Positions 49,219 to 58,408 of a stretch of 64,000 nt of DNA are shown here, piece by piece; position 1 is the stretch's first letter; every line of letters begins with the position of its first letter. The notes below the pieces were generated by a model. It saw only the letters and a program-made list of their open reading frames with translations. It was not told where the DNA came from and did not search any database. Position numbers and translations under genes: made by a program. The DNA is taken from NCBI RefSeq assembly GCF_988242995.1, contig NZ_OZ547043.1. One strand, 5' to 3'.

Positions 49219-49790
49219 ACGGTCTGACTCCGGTTGTACCAGAAGAGAGTTTTGTTCATCCGACAGCGGTATTGATCGGCGATGTTATTCTCGGCAAGGG
49301 CGTGTACGTTGGGCCAAATGCCAGCCTGCGTGGCGATTTCGGTCGTATCGTGGTGAAAGATGGCGCGAACATTCAGGATAATTGCGTTATGCACGGTTTT
49401 CCCGATCAGGATACTGTCGTGGAAGAAGATGGGCATATTGGTCATAGCGCTATCCTTCACGGCTGCATTATCCGCCGCAATGCATTAGTGGGTATGAACG
49501 CGGTAGTGATGGACGGTGCGGTGATTGGCGAGAACAGCATTGTTGGCGCTTCCGCATTTGTGAAAGCCAAAGCAGAAATGCCTGCTAATTACCTGATTGT
49601 CGGCAGCCCGGCAAAAGCGATTCGTGAACTTAGTGAGCAGGAACTGGCATGGAAAAAGCAGGGCACGCATGAGTATCAGGTGCTGGTGACACGCTGTAAG
49701 CAGACGTTACATCAAGTCGAGCCATTGCGGGAAGTTGAACCTGGCAGGAAACGCCTGGTATTTGATGAGAATCTGCGACCGAAACAGTAA
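49200..49790 (+). CDS. paaY: Hexapeptide-repeat thioesterase PaaY
   Basis: 196 aa, left-handed beta-helix repeats. Confidence 0.9.
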
Positions 49791-49822
49791 CAGATGTAAA
49801 ATTATTTTGTCCTTTTAATTAT

Positions 49823-49860
49823 AAAGCAGAGTTATGTTTCAGCTCTGCTTTATTTATTTT
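49823..49860 (+). terminator. Intrinsic terminator downstream of paaY
   Basis: aaagcagag-loop-ctctgcttt hairpin followed by ATTTATTTT. Confidence 0.55.
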
Positions 49861-50120
49861 AGTATTAAATCATACCGTTTTTTTCATTATATGATTATTT
49901 ATAATGGTAATTTGGTTTAATTTATAATATGTATAATATACACAATTCATATATTTCATGGTCTTTTTTTATTCATCTGAATTATAACTGTGAATTATCG
50001 TAAAGTATATTTGATTAGATAATAATCCACTGGCAATATAGGATGTCTTCAATGTTTTAAATAACTAATTGGTCGGGTTAGTGCATCCGGCTTTCTTTAT
50101 ATTCGCCAGAAGGATTTATT

Positions 50121-53100
50121 ATGCAAAGGAAAACTTTATTGTCGGCCTGTATTGCATTAGCTCTGAGTGGTCAGGGTTGGGCGGCAGATATCACAGAGGT
50201 AGAAACCACCACAGGTGAAAAGAAAAATACTAATGTGACTTGTCCGGCAGATCCAGGAAAACTCAGTCCGGAAGAGCTTAAACGCTTACCCTCTGAATGC
50301 ACCCCTTTAGTCGAACAAAACCTGATGCCATGGCTTGCCACAGGCGCTGCTGCGTTAATCACGACCTTAGCCGTAGTGGAACTAAACGACGATGATGATC
50401 ATCATCATCGCAACAATTCTCCACTCCCACCGACGCCCCCTGATGATGATTCAGACGACACTCCAGTGCCCCCAACTCCTGGCGGAGATGAGATAATACC
50501 GGACGTTCCGGATGATACGCCTACACCTCCCAAACCGATTTCGTTTAATAATGACGTTATTCTCGATAAAACAGAAAAAACGTTAACTATTCGCGATTCA
50601 GTTTTTACTTATACCGAGAATGCTGACGGGACTATTTCTCTGCAAGATAACAGTGGTCGTAAGGCAACGATTAATCTTTGGCAGATTGATGAAGCGAATA
50701 ATACTGTTGCCCTTGAAGGTGTGAGCGCAGATGGCACAACAAAGTGGCGATATAATCACAACGGTGAGCTTGTTATAACGGGTGATAATGCCACAGTAAA
50801 CAACAATGGCAAAACCACCGTTGACGGTAAAGACTCCACCGGCACGGAAATCAACGGTAATAACGGAAAAGTTATCCAGGACGGCGATCTGGATGTCAGC
50901 GGCGGCGGTCACGGCATTGATATCACCGGCGACAGCGCGACGGTGGATAACAAGGGCACCATGACCGTCACCGATCCGGAGTCCATCGGTATTCAGATCG
51001 ACGGCGACAAGGCGGTTGTTAACAACGAAGGCGACAGCACCATCAGCAATGGTGGCACCGGCACACAGATTAACGATGATGATGCCACGGCGAATAACAA
51101 CGGCAAAACCACCGTTGACGGCAAGGATTCCACCGGTACAGAAATCAACGGTAATAACGGGAAGGTTATCCAGGATGGCGATCTGGATGTCAGCGGTGGC
51201 GGTCACGGGATTGATATTACCGGCGACAGCGCAACGGTGGACAACAAGGGCACCATGACCGTCACCGATCCGGAGTCCATGGGGATCCAGATCGACGGCG
51301 ACAAGGCCATCGTCAATAACGAAGGCGAGAGCACCATCACCAACGGCGGCACCGGTACGCAGATTAACGGTGATGACGCCACGGCGAACAACAACGGCAA
51401 AACTACCGTTGACGGTAAAGATTCCACCGGTACAGAAATCAACGGTAATAACGGAAAAGTGATTCAGGGCGGCGATCTGGATGTCAGCGGCGGGGGCCAC
51501 GGCATTGATATCACCGGTGACAGCGCGACGGTGGATAACAAGGGCACCATGACCGTTACCGATCCGGAGTCCATCGGTATCCAGATCGACGGCGACAAGG
51601 CGGTTGTCAATAACGAAGGCGACAGTTCCATCAGCAACGGCGGCACCGGTACGCAGATTAACGGAGATGACGCCACGGCGAACAACAGCGGCAAAACCAC
51701 CGTTGACGGTAAAGACTCCACCGGCACGGAAATCAACGGTAATAACGGAAAAGTTATCCAGGACGGCGATCTGGATGTCAGCGGCGGCGGTCACGGCATT
51801 GATATCACCGGTGACAGCGCAACGGTGGACAACAAGGGTACCATGACTGTCACCGATCCGGAGTCCATCGGTATTCAGATCGACGGCGACAAGGCCATCG
51901 TCAATAACGAAGGCGACAGCACCATCAGCAACGGCGGCACCGGCACACAGATTAACGGTGATGACGCCACGGCAAACAACAACGGCAAAACCACCGTTGA
52001 CGGTAAAGATTCCACCGGTACGGAAATCAACGGTAATAACGGAAAAGTGATTCAGGACGGCGATCTGGATGTCAGCGGTGGCGGTCACGGGATTGATATT
52101 ACCGGTGACAGCGCGACGGTGGATAACAAGGGCACCATGACCGTCACCGATCCGGAGTCCATGGGGATCCAGATCGACGGCGACAAGGCCATCGTCAATA
52201 ACGAAGGCGAGAGCACCATCACCAACGGCGGCACCGGCACGCAGATTAACGGTGATGACGCCACGGCGAACAACAACGGCAAAACTACCGTTGACGGCAA
52301 GGATTCCACCGGCACGGAAATCAACGGCAATAACGGAAAAGTTATCCAGGACGGTGATCTGGATGTCAGCGGCGGCGGTCACGGCATTGATATTTCTGGC
52401 GATAATGCCGCCGTCGATAACAAAGGCAATATGACCGTCACGGACGCAGACTCGATCGGTGTACTGATCAATGGCGACAACGCGACACTTGCCAATACTG
52501 GTGATGTGGATGTCAGTAATTCAGCGACGGGATTTGCTATTACCAGCGACGAGGGGAAAATCTCCCTCGCGGGAAGTATGCAGGTCGGTGATTTTTCAAC
52601 AGGGCTGACATTAACTGGCGATAATAATAGCCTGACAATGGCAATGCAGGATCTTAATGTCGTTGGTCAGAAAGCTACAGGTATTAACGTCTCCGGTGAT
52701 GCCAACACAATTGATATAACTGGTAATATTCTGGTTGATAAAGATCAGAGCGCAGACAATGCGGCAGAGTATTTTTATGACGCTTCCGTGGGCGTAAATG
52801 TCAGTGGTCATAATAACAATGTGACACTGGATGGTAAATTAACGCTTGTTGCGGATGGTGAAACTACCACACGTGATGTCTCGAATTTTGATGGTAGCCA
52901 GGAAAATATTTCTGGTCTTATTGTTTCCGGTGATGGTAACAACATCAATCTGAATGGCGGGATTGCATTTGTTGGTGAAATAAATGCGCTGACCGATGGT
53001 TCAGCCATTGCTAACAAACGGACTTTCTTCGGTAATACGCCACTTATTGGTATTGATGGTGAATCGAAGGTATATCTGAATGGTGACTCAACGATCAGTG

Positions 53101-56100
53101 GTGATCTGCAACTAGGATATGCAAGCCTTATCCAGTTAAAAAATAAAGCAGCTATTGAGATTGGCAGTGAAGCTACTTTCAATATGCGGGATATTGAAAA
53201 TTATGATCATTACTATGCACAAACACCACAGATTATAAAGGCAGAAAGTAGCTCTGAGGTCATAAATAACGGTAATGTTGATATCTGGAATATCAGTTTT
53301 GCTGGTATCTTTGGCGAAAATACCACAGGTATCAATAACGGGAATATCACACTTTCTCTGTATGATTATGCCTCAACTAATACGCCAGCACCGGAACCAG
53401 ATAACACGGCCTTCTTGACCTCTAACGGCGGCAGCGCAGTAAACAAAGGGGTAATTACCTCAAAAGTAATGGAGCAACATAGCGTTGTTAATATGGCTGC
53501 ACTCACGGGGTCAACGGATCAGCGCGTGTTTAATAACAGCGTAGCAAGCATGATGGGGATGGAGGCGTATAATAAAGGCTCTGTTCTCAATGCCGAAGAT
53601 GCTGTCATTGATATGTATGGACGCGGTAGCATTGGCATGTTAGCCATCGATAACTCAACGGCGGATAATGCAGGCAATATTACGGTGGATACGTTATGGA
53701 TTGATGACAATGACACCACCAGTTTGCATACCGATCTTCCGGGGGCAACGGCAAAAGATTATGGCGTTGGTATGGCAACCGGGACAGACACCGGGGGTGG
53801 CGCTCGTAACAACGCTATTGCGACCAACCTGGAAGGTGGTGTAATTACTGTATATAACGCAGGTGCCGGTATGGCCGCCTACGGTAACAGTAATATGGTT
53901 ATTAACCAGGGAATCATTAACCTCGAGAAAAATGCAGATTACGATGCAAACCTGGGTAGTAATACGCTGGTAGGGATGGCAGTGTATAAAGGTGCTACGG
54001 CAATAAACGACCAAACTGGTGTAATCAATATTAATGTTGATACGGGCCAGGCGTTTTATAATGATGGTACAGGCATTATCCTCAACTATGGTGAGATTAA
54101 TCTCAACGGAGCGGAAATTGATAGCACCGACTCTCATTATGGTGCTCCTGCAGAGAATCTGGAACTGTTATCTGAATTGAGTGCCAGTGGAGAGAACATT
54201 ACAAAAACAGTTATCCGAGATGGCTTTGTTACCATTAAACCGCTGGCTAATTATGGTACAGAAATACTGAACGGCGATGTCGATGCCAACCTATGGTTAT
54301 ATAACGAGGATAAGGCCAGCCTGACAGTTAATGGTGATTTGAATATTGTCCAGGGGCTGGAAAACAGCGGGAGCATGGATGCCGACAAGCTTACTGCCAA
54401 TGCCAGTGTTTACAATCGCGCCTCGGGCAGTATGACAACCGAACTGTTAATGTTAAAAGGCGGGTCTGCCTTCTTCAATGAGGGAAGCTTTAGCGGAGTA
54501 ATTAGCGGTGATAGTTATAAACAAAACGTTGTAAATACGGGGGAGATGACAACTGTCACAGATGGTAGTGCCTTAATTAACGGCAGTTTCGTACTTTATA
54601 ATGAAGCCGGTTCAACGCTTACAAATAGCGGCAATGCTATTGCGGGAGGGGAAAATGCCATCGTTAATATCACACGCACCAGTGATTCTCTTTCACAGGT
54701 TAACCGCGGAAAAATTACCGCCACAAACGGTTACAGTGCGATTAAAACTGCCAGCACAGCCTCTAACAGCAACGGCAAATGGATTTGGAATACAGAAACC
54801 GGTGTAATTAATGGTATCAATCCAGATGCTCCACTGATTGATTTAGGTCGCGGGTATAATTTTGCTAACGCCGGAACAATTAATGTTCAGGGTGATGGTT
54901 CAGTTGCTATTAGCGGAGGCACCACCAGCTATACTGTTCAGTTAGTGAACAGCGGCACAATTAACGTGGGTACTGAACAGGGCAAAGCAGATGGAAGCAA
55001 CGGTGAAGGTCTGATTGGCATCAAAGGAAATGGTTCTGCAACAACGATTAATAATACTAAAGACGGTGTCATTAACGTTTATGCAGATAATTCATGGGCG
55101 TTTGGTGGTTCCACTAAAGCGATTGTGAATAATGGGATAATCAACCTGTTGTGTAATATTGGTTGCGAGATTTATGCGCCAAATACCACAGGGACGAGAA
55201 ACAGTCAGGATGGAACTGCGGATATAATCGTACCGGTCGCTTCTGCGACGCCTGGGCAAGGTAATGTTCCTGCGGCACCAGTCAATGCTGTAAGTCAGCA
55301 AAAACTTACCAATTACACTATTGGTACTAATAGCGACGGAAGTTCCGGCACCTTGAAAGCCAATAACCTTGTTATCAGTGACAACGTCAAGGTAAATACT
55401 GGCTTTAGTGCAGGAACTGCTGATACTACCGTGGTGATTGATGATGTTTTCAAAGGTGAAAATATCAGCGGCGCGGAGAATATCACTTCCTCTTCAGTTG
55501 TCTGGAACGCTAAAGGCAGTACCGATGCCAGCGGCAACGTTGACGTCACTATGAGCAAAAACGCTTATACCGATGTGGCGACCGATGCTTCGGTGAATGA
55601 CGTCGCGAAAGCACTGGATGCGGGTTACACCAACAACGAGCTGTATACCAGCCTGAACGTCGGCACGACTGCCGAACTGAACAGCGCCCTGAAACAGGTC
55701 AGCGGTAGCCAGGCGACCACGGTATTCCGCGAAGCGCGTGTGCTCAGCAACCGCTTTAGCATGCTGGCAGATGCCGCACCGAAAGTGGGTAACGGTCTGG
55801 CGTTCAACGTGGTGGCGAAAGGCGATCCGCGCGCGGAGCTGGGGAACAATACCGAGTACGACATGCTGGCACTGCGTAAAACCATTGACCTGAGTGAAAG
55901 TCAGACCATGAGTCTGGAGTACGGTATCGCTCGTCTCGATGGCGACGGTGCGCAGAAAGCTGGCGATAATGGTGTTACAGGCGGTTACAGCCAGTTCTTT
56001 GGCCTGAAACATCAGATGTCCTTCGACAATGGCATGAACTGGAACAACGCATTGCGTTATGACGTTCACAACCTTGACAGCAGCCGTTCGATTGCATTTA

Positions 56101-56612
56101 GCAACACGAACAAAACTGCTGATACCGACGTGAAACAGCAGTACCTGGAGTTCCGCAGCGAAGGAGCGAAGACTTTCGAACCGAGCGAAGGGCTGAAGGT
56201 CACACCATATGCGGGTGTGAAACTGCGTCACACACTGGAAGGTGGCTATCAGGAGCGCAATGCCGGAGACTTTAACCTGAATATGAACAGTGGTAGCGAA
56301 ACGGCGGTGGACAGCATCGTCGGGCTGAAACTGGACTATGCAGGTAAAGACGGCTGGAGCGCTAGCGCTACGCTGGAAGGCGGGCCGAACTTGAGCTACG
56401 CGAAGAGCCAGCGCACAGCAAGCCTGGCAGGTGCAGGCAGTCAGCACTTTAACATCGATGACGGTCAGAAGGGCGGCGGCATCAACAGCCTGGCAAGTGT
56501 CGGCGTGAAGTACAGCAGCAAAGAAAGTTCGCTGAATCTGGATGCGTACAACTGGAAAGAGGAAGGCATCAGCGACAAAGGCGTGATGCTGAACTTCAAG
56601 AAAACGTTCTAA
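50121..56612 (+). CDS. ydbA: Large autotransporter adhesin-like protein, uninterrupted
   Basis: 2163 aa: signal peptide, Pro/Asp/His-rich linker, about six and a half tandem 98-aa repeats, long beta-helix-like passenger, and a C-terminal beta-barrel translocator ending in F. Confidence 0.85.
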   Translation: MQRKTLLSACIALALSGQGWAADITEVETTTGEKKNTNVTCPADPGKLSPEELKRLPSECTPLVEQNLMPWLATGAAALITTLAVVELNDDDDHHHRNNSPLPPTPPDDDSDDTPVPPTPGGDEIIPDVPDDTPTPPKPISFNNDVILDKTEKTLTIRDSVFTYTENADGTISLQDNSGRKATINLWQIDEANNTVALEGVSADGTTKWRYNHNGELVITGDNATVNNNGKTTVDGKDSTGTEINGNNGKVIQDGDLDVSGGGHGIDITGDSATVDNKGTMTVTDPESIGIQIDGDKAVVNNEGDSTISNGGTGTQINDDDATANNNGKTTVDGKDSTGTEINGNNGKVIQDGDLDVSGGGHGIDITGDSATVDNKGTMTVTDPESMGIQIDGDKAIVNNEGESTITNGGTGTQINGDDATANNNGKTTVDGKDSTGTEINGNNGKVIQGGDLDVSGGGHGIDITGDSATVDNKGTMTVTDPESIGIQIDGDKAVVNNEGDSSISNGGTGTQINGDDATANNSGKTTVDGKDSTGTEINGNNGKVIQDGDLDVSGGGHGIDITGDSATVDNKGTMTVTDPESIGIQIDGDKAIVNNEGDSTISNGGTGTQINGDDATANNNGKTTVDGKDSTGTEINGNNGKVIQDGDLDVSGGGHGIDITGDSATVDNKGTMTVTDPESMGIQIDGDKAIVNNEGESTITNGGTGTQINGDDATANNNGKTTVDGKDSTGTEINGNNGKVIQDGDLDVSGGGHGIDISGDNAAVDNKGNMTVTDADSIGVLINGDNATLANTGDVDVSNSATGFAITSDEGKISLAGSMQVGDFSTGLTLTGDNNSLTMAMQDLNVVGQKATGINVSGDANTIDITGNILVDKDQSADNAAEYFYDASVGVNVSGHNNNVTLDGKLTLVADGETTTRDVSNFDGSQENISGLIVSGDGNNINLNGGIAFVGEINALTDGSAIANKRTFFGNTPLIGIDGESKVYLNGDSTISGDLQLGYASLIQLKNKAAIEIGSEATFNMRDIENYDHYYAQTPQIIKAESSSEVINNGNVDIWNISFAGIFGENTTGINNGNITLSLYDYASTNTPAPEPDNTAFLTSNGGSAVNKGVITSKVMEQHSVVNMAALTGSTDQRVFNNSVASMMGMEAYNKGSVLNAEDAVIDMYGRGSIGMLAIDNSTADNAGNITVDTLWIDDNDTTSLHTDLPGATAKDYGVGMATGTDTGGGARNNAIATNLEGGVITVYNAGAGMAAYGNSNMVINQGIINLEKNADYDANLGSNTLVGMAVYKGATAINDQTGVININVDTGQAFYNDGTGIILNYGEINLNGAEIDSTDSHYGAPAENLELLSELSASGENITKTVIRDGFVTIKPLANYGTEILNGDVDANLWLYNEDKASLTVNGDLNIVQGLENSGSMDADKLTANASVYNRASGSMTTELLMLKGGSAFFNEGSFSGVISGDSYKQNVVNTGEMTTVTDGSALINGSFVLYNEAGSTLTNSGNAIAGGENAIVNITRTSDSLSQVNRGKITATNGYSAIKTASTASNSNGKWIWNTETGVINGINPDAPLIDLGRGYNFANAGTINVQGDGSVAISGGTTSYTVQLVNSGTINVGTEQGKADGSNGEGLIGIKGNGSATTINNTKDGVINVYADNSWAFGGSTKAIVNNGIINLLCNIGCEIYAPNTTGTRNSQDGTADIIVPVASATPGQGNVPAAPVNAVSQQKLTNYTIGTNSDGSSGTLKANNLVISDNVKVNTGFSAGTADTTVVIDDVFKGENISGAENITSSSVVWNAKGSTDASGNVDVTMSKNAYTDVATDASVNDVAKALDAGYTNNELYTSLNVGTTAELNSALKQVSGSQATTVFREARVLSNRFSMLADAAPKVGNGLAFNVVAKGDPRAELGNNTEYDMLALRKTIDLSESQTMSLEYGIARLDGDGAQKAGDNGVTGGYSQFFGLKHQMSFDNGMNWNNALRYDVHNLDSSRSIAFSNTNKTADTDVKQQYLEFRSEGAKTFEPSEGLKVTPYAGVKLRHTLEGGYQERNAGDFNLNMNSGSETAVDSIVGLKLDYAGKDGWSASATLEGGPNLSYAKSQRTASLAGAGSQHFNIDDGQKGGGINSLASVGVKYSSKESSLNLDAYNWKEEGISDKGVMLNFKKTF
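50798..52560 (+). repeat. In-frame tandem repeats inside ydbA: 294-bp unit (98 aa), ~6.5 copies
   Basis: Recurring unit NNNGKTTVDGKDSTGTEINGNNGKVIQDGDLDVSGGGHGIDITGDSATVDNKGTMTVTDPESIGIQIDGDKAVVNNEGDSTISNGGTGTQINDDDATA with a few substitutions per copy. Confidence 0.85.
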
Positions 56613-56819: not shown

Positions 56820-57680
56820 ATGAGCAGCAACACATTTACTCTCGGTACAAAATCCGTTAACCGTCTTGGTTATGGCGCGATGCAACTGGCAGGCCCTGGG
56901 GTTTTTGGCCCCCCAAGAGATCGCCACGTTGCTATAACCGTGCTGCGCGAGGCGCTGGCATTGGGCGTCAATCATATTGATACCAGCGACTTTTATGGTC
57001 CGCACGTCACCAATCAGATTATCCGCGAAGCGCTACATCCTTACTCTGACGACCTGACAATTGTCACTAAAATTGGTGCACGACGTGGTGAGGATGCTTC
57101 CTGGTTGCCCGCATTTTCTCCGGCAGAGCTGCAAAAAGCGGTACACGATAATCTACGTAATCTCGGCCTGGACGTACTGGATGTGGTTAACCTGCGCGTC
57201 ATGATGGGGGATGGTCATGGCCCGGCGGAAGGATCGATTGAAGCCAGCCTGACCGTGCTGGCAGAGATGCAACAACAAGGCCTGGTAAAACATATTGGCC
57301 TGAGCAACGTCACACCGACGCAGGTCGCAGAGGCGCGTAAGATTACCGAAATCGTCTGTGTGCAGAACGAATACAACATTGCTCATCGTGCTGATGACGC
57401 AATGATTGATGATTTGGCCCGCGTTGGCATTGCTTACGTGCCGTTCTTCCCGCTTGGGGGCTTTACGCCGCTGCAATCCTCCACACTTTCGGATGTAGCA
57501 GCGAGCCTGGGCGCAACACCAATGCAGGTGGCGCTGGCGTGGCTGTTACAACGTTCACCGAATATTTTGCTGATCCCAGGGACATCTTCTGTTGCGCATT
57601 TACGGGAGAATATGGCTGCTGAAAAATTGCATCTTTCTGAGGAAGTGTTGTCTACGTTGGATGGTATTTCGCGAGAATAA
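56820..57680 (+). CDS. ydbC: Aldo-keto reductase
   Basis: 286 aa; family motifs (GYGAMQLAG, IDTSDFYG). Confidence 0.85.
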   Translation: MSSNTFTLGTKSVNRLGYGAMQLAGPGVFGPPRDRHVAITVLREALALGVNHIDTSDFYGPHVTNQIIREALHPYSDDLTIVTKIGARRGEDASWLPAFSPAELQKAVHDNLRNLGLDVLDVVNLRVMMGDGHGPAEGSIEASLTVLAEMQQQGLVKHIGLSNVTPTQVAEARKITEIVCVQNEYNIAHRADDAMIDDLARVGIAYVPFFPLGGFTPLQSSTLSDVAASLGATPMQVALAWLLQRSPNILLIPGTSSVAHLRENMAAEKLHLSEEVLSTLDGISRE

Positions 57681-57749
57681 CGAGTCAGGCGCTCGCAGAT
57701 TGTGCTTAAGGAAGAGCACAAAGCGATAGAAAACAGGTAAGCGGATTGA

Positions 57750-57779
57750 GATGTGGACTGAATATCTACAGTCCACATC
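57750..57779. terminator. Strong hairpin between convergent ydbC and azoR (candidate bidirectional terminator)
   Basis: gatgtggact-(10 nt)-agtccacatc, a perfect 10-bp stem. Confidence 0.45.
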
Positions 57780-57793
57780 AAGATCGTGTCCGG

Positions 57794-58408
<615 letters not shown>

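Follow-up and report, generated by a model that had tools for sequence, protein, structure and literature searches.

The 64,000-nucleotide stretch of contig NZ_OZ547043.1 (RefSeq assembly GCF_988242995.1), hereafter the window, carries at positions 50121..56612 of the plus strand an intact gene for a protein of 2163 amino acids (aa). We consider this gene very probably to be an allele of ydbA, situated at the same locus as upaH of the uropathogenic Escherichia coli strain CFT073, and its product to be a classical type Va autotransporter. The passenger contains a tandem array of 98-aa units, which structural modelling depicts as the length module of a beta-helical stalk. The number of these units changes in frame, by homologous recombination at stretches of 20-39 bp that are identical between units.

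An intact ydbA allele at the upaH locus

According to the list of open reading frames (ORFs) and the translation, the gene begins with ATG and its only stop codon is the terminal one, so that the single uninterrupted frame claimed in the original prediction stands, with no internal stop or frameshift. The coding sequence (CDS) is 100% identical to that of E. coli CFSAN061763 (RefSeq protein WP_019842676.1) and to those of about 40 other complete genomes, and exactly the same protein is found on at least 1000 public contigs. In the window, paaK, paaX and paaY lie upstream, and pdxI (ydbC) and azoR downstream; the order paaY, ydbA, pdxI, azoR is common to the window and CFSAN061763. The same position in K-12, between paaY and pdxI, is occupied by ydbA::IS2/IS30, in which two pseudogene fragments are separated by the transposase genes of the insertion sequences (IS) IS2 and IS30. 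The fragments are annotated as a “beta strand repeat-containing protein” and an “autotransporter domain-containing protein”. The original prediction had named the gene ydbA and described its K-12 counterpart as an IS-split pseudogene. Both points are borne out, the name by the K-12 synteny (after paaX-paaY and before pdxI) and by the Pfam matches described below (BigA_N, BigA_beta and the PF03797 barrel), but the identity with upaH, which had already been characterised, was missed.

The homologue in CFT073 (P0034; 2555 aa) was retrieved by a protein search with 69% identity over 90% of the query, and its gene follows ydbH-ynbE-ydbL and precedes pdxI(-like)-azoR-hrpA. As an identity test, we used upaH primers designed on GenBank entry FJ719778.1 (PMC11658850, Table 1; a 2024 paper). 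Both primers match inside the CFT073 gene at this ydbL/pdxI/azoR locus with 0 mismatches, in convergent orientation and 665 bp apart. With up to 4 substitutions allowed, neither matches the window, K-12 or Combat2C1 alleles, because the primer targets lie in the divergent middle of the passenger. Both by position and by homology to K-12 ydbA and CFT073 upaH, the window gene occupies the orthologous locus.

A search of the literature library found no paper in which both names, upaH and ydbA, are used, and the equivalence is easily overlooked. The literature, under the names ydbA or upaH, already covers the gene, the fact that many strains carry it intact, the repetitiveness of the passenger and the variation between strains. 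What is added here is the link between the two names, the 49-aa modules of two rungs each, the exact deletion junctions, and the synonymous divergence and reshuffling of the units. Many YdbA/UpaH homologues have been named “EntS/YbdA MFS (major facilitator superfamily) transporter” by the NCBI pipeline (e.g., L007 154-7971, NZ_CP019243.1); the label looks like a mix-up of the names ydbA and ybdA that has spread over dozens of records.

Domain anatomy and export

The protein starts with a predicted Sec signal peptide (aa 1-21; 50121..50183, plus strand, as are all features of the gene given below), in which a hydrophobic core and a G-W-A/A-D site follow a basic n-region (MQRK) and which homologues share; the picture is complicated by another conserved hydrophobic stretch, at aa 68-88, taken up below. 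The first recognisable domain is BigA_N (Pfam PF25784; aa 140-220; 50538..50780), with E = 1.2e-31 and 109 bits against a cut-off of 24.5, for which AlphaFold2 (AF2) predicts the strands of a small beta-barrel at a predicted local distance difference test score (pLDDT) of 64-83. It is followed by the repeat array and then by a non-repetitive part of the passenger (aa 807-1730; 52539..55310), presumed to be an irregular beta-helix. The assignment of this part draws on an NCBIfam alignment and on the Pfam families BigA_3rd and BigA_4th (PF27417, PF27415), which are precomputed for P0003, a variant of the same 90% cluster that is one unit shorter, and for 120/120 listed homologues. A BigA_beta sandwich (PF25783; aa 1731-1815; 55311..55565; E = 6.5e-27, 93.6 bits against a cut-off of 24.3) comes next, and its strands appear at residues 14-100 of the modelled C-terminal segment. 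BigA_N and BigA_beta both score above the Pfam gathering thresholds, which places the protein in the BigA/YdbA family.

The remainder of the protein is a predicted alpha-helical linker (aa ~1816-1884; 55566..55772; AF2 helices at segment residues 103-171) and a C-terminal outer-membrane beta-barrel translocator (aa ~1888-2163; 55782..56609), for which Pfam, AF2 and Foldseek agree. The last long helix (aa ~1867-1884) directly precedes the first barrel strand and presumably lies inside the barrel pore. The autotransporter barrel family PF03797 was not listed when the whole protein was scanned against Pfam, but was recovered when the C-terminal 433 aa (1731-2163) were rescanned alone (E = 4.5e-19, 69.6 bits against a cut-off of 26); its absence from the first scan is a filter effect, and the barrel is present. 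A sequence search of the C-terminus against the PDB gave no match at E <= 1. The AF2 model of this segment (mean pLDDT 83) comprises the sandwich, the helical linker and about 12 long strands, as counted from the DSSP string of the model, and Foldseek matched it with probability 1.00 to AaaA, EstA, EspP, NalP, BrkA and Hbp, with E values down to 9e-10. As modelled, the C-terminus is a classical type Va barrel, and the helical linker in front of it is likewise that of type Va proteins.

Export would thus follow the family pattern. The Sec signal peptide would direct export into the periplasm, the roughly 12-stranded C-terminal barrel, as seen by Pfam and in the model, would be inserted into the outer membrane with the help of the beta-barrel assembly machinery, as in other type Va proteins, and the passenger of ~1850 aa would be threaded outward. 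Since the C-terminus of the passenger is attached at the barrel, the opposite end, where the BigA_N barrel precedes the beta-helix, is presumably the distal one. Surface display of the passenger has been reported for UpaH of CFT073, as cited in PMC5595812.

Structure of the repeat array

The array (50775..52538) consists of six units of 294 bp (98 aa), which correspond to twelve 49-aa modules and, in the model, to about 24 beta-helix rungs. Tandem Repeats Finder reported one array with a period of 294 bp at 50776-52480 (5.8 copies, 89% matches, no indels, score 2680). In register, the units comprise aa 219-316, 317-414, 415-512, 513-610, 611-708 and 709-806. Units 1-5 are 92-99% identical as protein, while the first 49 aa of unit 6 are identical to those of unit 5 and its second half has diverged, giving an overall identity of 75-78% to the other units; residues 807-904 are unrelated in sequence to the repeats. 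The in-frame array of the original prediction is therefore confirmed, although with about six rather than 6.5 copies, the sixth being half diverged. Its description of the units as differing by only a few substitutions applies to the protein and not to the DNA, which is 87-95% identical.

Most of the codons that differ between units are synonymous (26 synonymous vs. 8 non-synonymous for units 1 and 2). By the Nei-Gojobori method, synonymous divergence (dS) between units is 0.24-0.63 and non-synonymous divergence (dN) is 0.004-0.038, with dN/dS ratios of 0.02-0.11. At the protein level, purifying selection on the units is strong, and they are old, protein-constrained copies rather than a freshly amplified array. 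Exact in-register runs span 23-56 bp between most pairs of units, and 113-122 bp for units 1/4 and 2/5. The longest exact matches join units 1/4 (122 bp), 2/5 (113 bp) and 3/6 (53 bp), a spacing suggestive of an older super-repeat of three units (882 bp) or of conversion tracts formed recently. The array also differs from the rest of the gene in composition, with 54-57% G+C and a strong excess of A over T, compared to 41-48% G+C elsewhere. An antisense ORF of 594 aa (50598-52382, minus strand) runs through it; this ORF is repetitive and rich in Val, Ala, Gly, Asp and Ile, and we take it to be a by-product of the codon composition of the repeats, not a gene.

An alignment of 17 sequences served for the AF2 model of aa 1-512, in which pLDDT values are below 50 for aa 1-41 and 67-130 and reach 90-98 for aa 230-512. 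The latter region is predicted to form a regular parallel beta-helix with three strands per rung and a rung every 24 or 25 residues, so that a 49-aa module would equal two rungs and a 98-aa unit four. On this model, the array is the length module of a beta-helical stalk. Foldseek matches of the N-terminal model in the PDB were weak (E > 1e-3, low TM score; Ag43, TibA, AlgE4 and polygalacturonases), probably because about 130 disordered residues were included, and point weakly to the parallel beta-helix fold class of Ag43, TibA and pectate-lyase-like enzymes.

Copy-number variation of the array

Besides the query, its 90% cluster includes proteins of 1673 aa (found on at least 1000 contigs), 2065 aa and 2261 aa. 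The 5022-bp allele that encodes the 1673-aa protein, examined in strain WP9-S17-ESBL-11, equals the window gene minus 1470 bp (5 x 294), with 0 mismatches elsewhere. The crossover interval lies at 50886..50924 in unit 1, with its partner at 52356-52394 in unit 6, and falls within the longest exact in-register match between these two units (38 bp at offset 111; interval 38-39 bp). The junction is present in 86 complete genomes, counted as those in which a 600-bp probe across it is fully matched at >=99% identity. PaaX, PaaY and PdxI have identical accessions in WP9-S17-ESBL-11 and in CFSAN061763, the strain that carries the window gene. In the 2065-aa variant, a crossover between units 1 and 2 has removed one unit, and two different intervals were found for it, one at 50883-50903 (1 contig) and the other at 50949-50987 (2 contigs); the latter coincides with the 38-bp longest match between these units. 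All three contigs share one single-nucleotide polymorphism (SNP) elsewhere in the gene.

Copy number therefore changes in frame, by homologous recombination at 20-39 bp of identical sequence between units. The original prediction had offered slipped-strand or recombinational events as alternatives. The position of the junctions at identical runs supports the second, whether unequal or intramolecular, and slipped-strand mispairing fits less well with a 294-bp period and a DNA divergence of 5-13% between units. That divergence also implies that recombination is infrequent. Within a clone the array is stable on short time scales, and intact copies of the exact allele measure 6492 bp in 42/42 of the complete genomes listed.

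The window allele was also compared with that of sequence type 2747 (ST2747), which is likewise 6492 bp long. The first 218 codons are identical and dS downstream of the array is 0.036, whereas dS within the array is 0.25 and units 2-5 are without one-to-one counterparts. Thus the internal units have been reshuffled or replaced with both length and protein sequence kept; dN/dS for the whole gene is 0.07. Among full-length E. coli homologues, a profile of the 49-aa module detects from 2 to 23 modules and the length of the protein tracks this count, from 1669 to 2700 aa in 49-aa steps. Repeat number is thus far from invariant, and the size variation foreseen in the original prediction is seen in the 1470-bp deletion allele and the one-unit deletions as well as in this wider series. 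Between alleles, identity in the middle of the passenger is only 43-73% and dS is saturated; the locus comprises deep allelic lineages.

Because a 294-bp period keeps the reading frame, the outcome is size variation rather than ON/OFF switching. With a rise of 0.48 nm per beta-helix rung, each unit would change the length of the stalk by ~1.9 nm, and the twelve modules of the window allele, as compared to two in the deletion derivative, would amount to 20 rungs or ~9.6 nm.

Three further near-identical variants (P0002, P0004 and P0044) lack 25, 44 or 319 aa inside the array and have 0-1 other differences. These deletions do not follow the 98-aa register (25 aa equal one rung and 319 aa about 13 rungs), and the variants, which come from third-party annotation (TPA) records or draft assemblies, may be real recombinants at the level of rungs or assembly errors. 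Another match from the search of representatives, P0175, was a low-complexity false lead.

Comparison with related autotransporters

UpaH of CFT073 is the closest of the characterised proteins. Like the window gene, it lies upstream of pdxI-azoR-hrpA and encodes, in the same architecture, the predicted signal peptide, the Cys motif, the hydrophobic segment, the Asp/His/Pro linker, BigA_N, an array of 49-aa modules, BigA_3rd/4th, BigA_beta and the barrel, and the literature describes it as highly repetitive, strain-variable, H-NS-repressed and biofilm-promoting. The two differ in their arrays, since the CFT073 gene, as read from a draft assembly, has 20 modules with a 147-aa (3-module) periodicity in 2555 aa, compared to 12 modules and a 98-aa periodicity here. 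The published UpaH is reportedly 2845 aa long. Alleles of this kind share only about 70% identity in the mid-passenger, and CFT073 is without the paa island upstream. The K-12 gene shares the position between paaY and pdxI, with 95% identity in the N-terminal 218 aa and 92% in the C-terminal 433 aa, but besides being split by IS2/IS30 it has a middle passenger of another allelic type (43-57% aa identity in the aligned parts).

BigA of Salmonella enterica (NF033178, “autotransporter adhesin BigA”) has BigA_N, BigA_beta, the barrel and the N-terminal Cys/hydrophobic/His/Pro-Asp module in common with the window protein. The NCBIfam model NF033178 (auto_BigA) scores 1864 bits against a cut-off of 3400 and aligns over aa 627-2163 only, so that the window protein is a relative of BigA and not BigA proper. 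BigA-type proteins have a long linker of tandem PDDGGNT / PPDDGGNVT repeats and few or no 98-aa stalk repeats, whereas YdbA combines a short non-repetitive linker with a long stalk array. The published description of BigA (PMC3419190) combines a passenger resembling that of AIDA-I with a barrel of the NalP type (group 6), and the presence of NalP among the best structural matches of the window barrel agrees with this placement.

The similarity to Ag43, AIDA-I and TibA is more general, and consists of type Va secretion and a parallel beta-helical passenger, with Ag43 and TibA among the weak structural matches mentioned above. No Pfam AIDA or pertactin repeat was matched by the passenger segments, even at E <= 1, and by sequence the passenger appears to be without the AIDA-type repeats of the self-associating (AIDA-I/Ag43/TibA) class. 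The imperfect repeats of AIDA-I and TibA are about 19 aa long, as compared to a rung period of 24/25 aa here. Allelic variation with functional consequences has been reported for Ag43 and UpaH (PMC5595812 and other secondary literature).

In-frame tandem repeats of structural units in a surface protein, with length variants that arise by recombination, are also found in the streptococcal alpha C/Rib and staphylococcal Bap proteins. There, the DNA of the repeats is almost identical and deletions occur often, while the units of the window gene are 5-13% diverged, mostly at synonymous sites, and the array is stable within a clone.

The N-terminal module

Between the signal peptide and BigA_N, aa 22-139 form a module that is covered by no model in a Pfam scan and for which AF2 gives pLDDT values mostly below 60. 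It comprises a two-Cys motif, C41-P...L-P-x-x-C60 (50241..50300), with C41, P42, L48 and C60 invariant in our alignment (A1). Next comes a marginally hydrophobic, Gly/Ala-rich segment led by Trp and conserved in homologues (aa 68-88, LMPWLATGAAALITTLAVVEL; 50322..50384), and then an Asp/His patch (DDDDHHH) with a Pro/Asp-rich linker (aa 89-139, NDDDDHHHRNN...PPKP; 50385..50537) that contains 15 Pro and 13 Asp and has a net charge of -12. In homologues, the polar patch always contains His and is followed by PPDDGG[DN]xT repeats or a Pro/Asp spacer of very variable length. The features of aa 22-139 are kept in 19 representatives at <=50% identity, so that the linker, which the original prediction called unusual, is a trait of the family, and the module is present in every BigA/YdbA family member examined. 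The same prediction had the passenger begin with DDDDHHHRNN; the segment is indeed there, but the mature protein starts earlier, as C41...C60 and aa 68-88 precede it. Matches to aa 1-220 are rare, with only 62 among 1.84 billion cluster representatives.

For aa 68-88, the Kyte-Doolittle 19-residue mean is 1.79 and the summed Hessa scale is +1.9 kcal/mol, and across the family the corresponding ranges are 1.5-2.1 and +0.4 to +3.6 kcal/mol. The Kyte-Doolittle values resemble those of a transmembrane segment, whereas the position-independent Hessa sum is marginal. A stop-transfer helix at this position would be incompatible with export of the passenger, and the segment is probably translocated. 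A lipoprotein reading of the sequence LLSAC was ruled out, as the Cys is not conserved in homologues.

That the two-Cys motif, the Trp-led Gly/Ala helix, the His patch and the Pro/Asp spacer together make up an undescribed functional device at the far tip of the passenger, rather than a passive spacer, is a speculation to which we give only a small chance. Such a device could be, for example, a metal-dependent or membrane-interacting tether, or a segment that holds back the N-terminus during secretion. If the locus holds anything new, it would be in aa 22-139.

The (GAT)4(CAT)3 codons of DDDDHHH (50389-50411) were flagged by a hairpin scan as a near-palindrome. Homologous alleles read DDDDHH or DDGNHHH here, and the differences may reflect small changes at the level of triplets. 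In homologues from E. albertii (P0149, P0197-P0210), the linker is a 9-aa PPDDGGNVT tandem repeat whose copy number varies between strains, and the proteins range from 1796 to 1913 aa in 9-aa steps, which locates the variable element in the linker and not in the stalk. Together with the E. coli stalk, this means that the same family has two different length-variable modules.

Flanking regions

The AT-rich intergenic region upstream of the gene (49791..50120, plus strand), presumed to contain the promoter and regulatory sites, has 24.8% GC and no GATC, and a terminator-like hairpin of paaY lies at 49821-49853. H-NS represses upaH, according to PMC5012682, which cites Allsopp 2012, and by analogy silencing of the window gene by H-NS would be in line with the low GC content.

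Downstream, pdxI (56820-57680) and azoR (57794-58399, minus strand) follow directly, at 56820-58399 of the window. In K-12 the gene directly after pdxI is ydbD, and in Combat2C1 ynbA-ynbB; neither is present between pdxI and azoR in the window, CFSAN061763 or CFT073. The pdxI-azoR region has been described in a 2016 paper as one of genomic heterogeneity, with a full-length ydbA in about 42% of phylogroup A genomes (PMC4951805).

Alternative explanations

Several observations weigh against an active, variable autotransporter at this locus. The case for equating ydbA with upaH is built from synteny, primer matches, 69% identity and citations in secondary literature; the conserved hydrophobic stretch at aa 68-88 departs from the simple picture of an autotransporter; and the one-unit deletions come from draft assemblies and could in principle be assembly errors. 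A strongly AT-rich upstream region, together with the repression by H-NS reported for upaH, suggests that under many conditions the gene is not expressed. IS1 insertions disrupt this six-unit allele in 6 complete genomes (H81-H84, H86 and H90), and an additional genome, H88, has a copy with 8 extra bases that is annotated as two CDSs. Along with IS2 and IS30 in K-12, these disruptions indicate that the gene is dispensable; the IS1 insertions are independent of those in K-12, i.e., the gene has been lost repeatedly. An effect of stalk length on function is hypothetical, and a role of the window allele in biofilm formation and colonisation is suggested by orthology with UpaH only.

These disruptions, a frameshifted fragment in strain N3, the low upstream GC content with the reported repression, and the slight and strain-dependent phenotypes of UpaH deletions (review, PMC12525524) are what one would expect if the gene were mostly silenced and slowly decaying, with the length of the array a neutral by-product without functional consequence. 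We regard this as possible but unlikely, because the dN/dS ratios, both between units and for the whole gene against ST2747, reveal sustained purifying selection that includes the repeats, because every length variant seen is in frame, and because the N- and C-terminal modules are conserved across genera of Enterobacterales. A quite improbable alternative reverses the direction of change, so that the 1673-aa allele with one unit is the older and acquired the six-unit array through recombination with a different allele. The identity of the two alleles outside the array does not by itself give a direction, and arrays have clearly been exchanged or reshuffled between alleles. Import, however, would call for a donor that matches the recipient perfectly along the entire 5 kb of gene sequence around the array, with both breakpoints in units 1 and 6, whereas a single intramolecular deletion at a 38-bp identical run is one event; moreover, units 2-5 differ by 5-13%, which rules out their recent origin from one unit.

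The remaining two explanations are hardly credible. An array collapsed or expanded during assembly would have a precedent in upaH of CFT073, which is highly repetitive and was misassembled in the original genome owing to its repeats (PMC5595812), but the identical 6492-bp gene occurs in 42 complete genomes assembled independently, from different laboratories and hosts, and the wide distribution of the exact protein over public contigs agrees with this. The divergence of the units, with exact runs that rarely exceed 56 bp, also makes collapse less likely. Nor do the repeats have the character of an ON/OFF phase-variation switch, for which there is nothing to be said beyond their occurrence in a surface-protein gene. 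A unit of 294 bp is 98 codons, so that its gain or loss keeps the frame, unlike the repeats of a contingency locus, and all observed variants are full-length ORFs. No homopolymer or short frame-shifting tract stood out at 49760-50540 or in our scans, none of which was aimed at short tracts, and there are no GATC clusters upstream, unlike agn43.

Implications for stalk length and function

We thus retain the reading of the window gene as a ydbA/upaH allele whose array sets the length of the stalk and varies by recombination. What is known of UpaH gives this variation a possible context. UpaH is described in the secondary literature as the largest AIDA-I-type autotransporter of E. coli; its variants differ in passenger sequence and in biofilm phenotype, and it does not promote aggregation (both from the review PMC12525524).

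The units are competent for recombination and yet diverged, which explains why this allele is usually assembled correctly from short reads, while the assemblies of other upaH alleles may be wrong. The alleles with six, five and one unit, identical elsewhere apart from the SNP of the five-unit contigs, make up a natural near-isogenic set with which it could be tested whether the length of the stalk matters for extending beyond the O-antigen or capsule.

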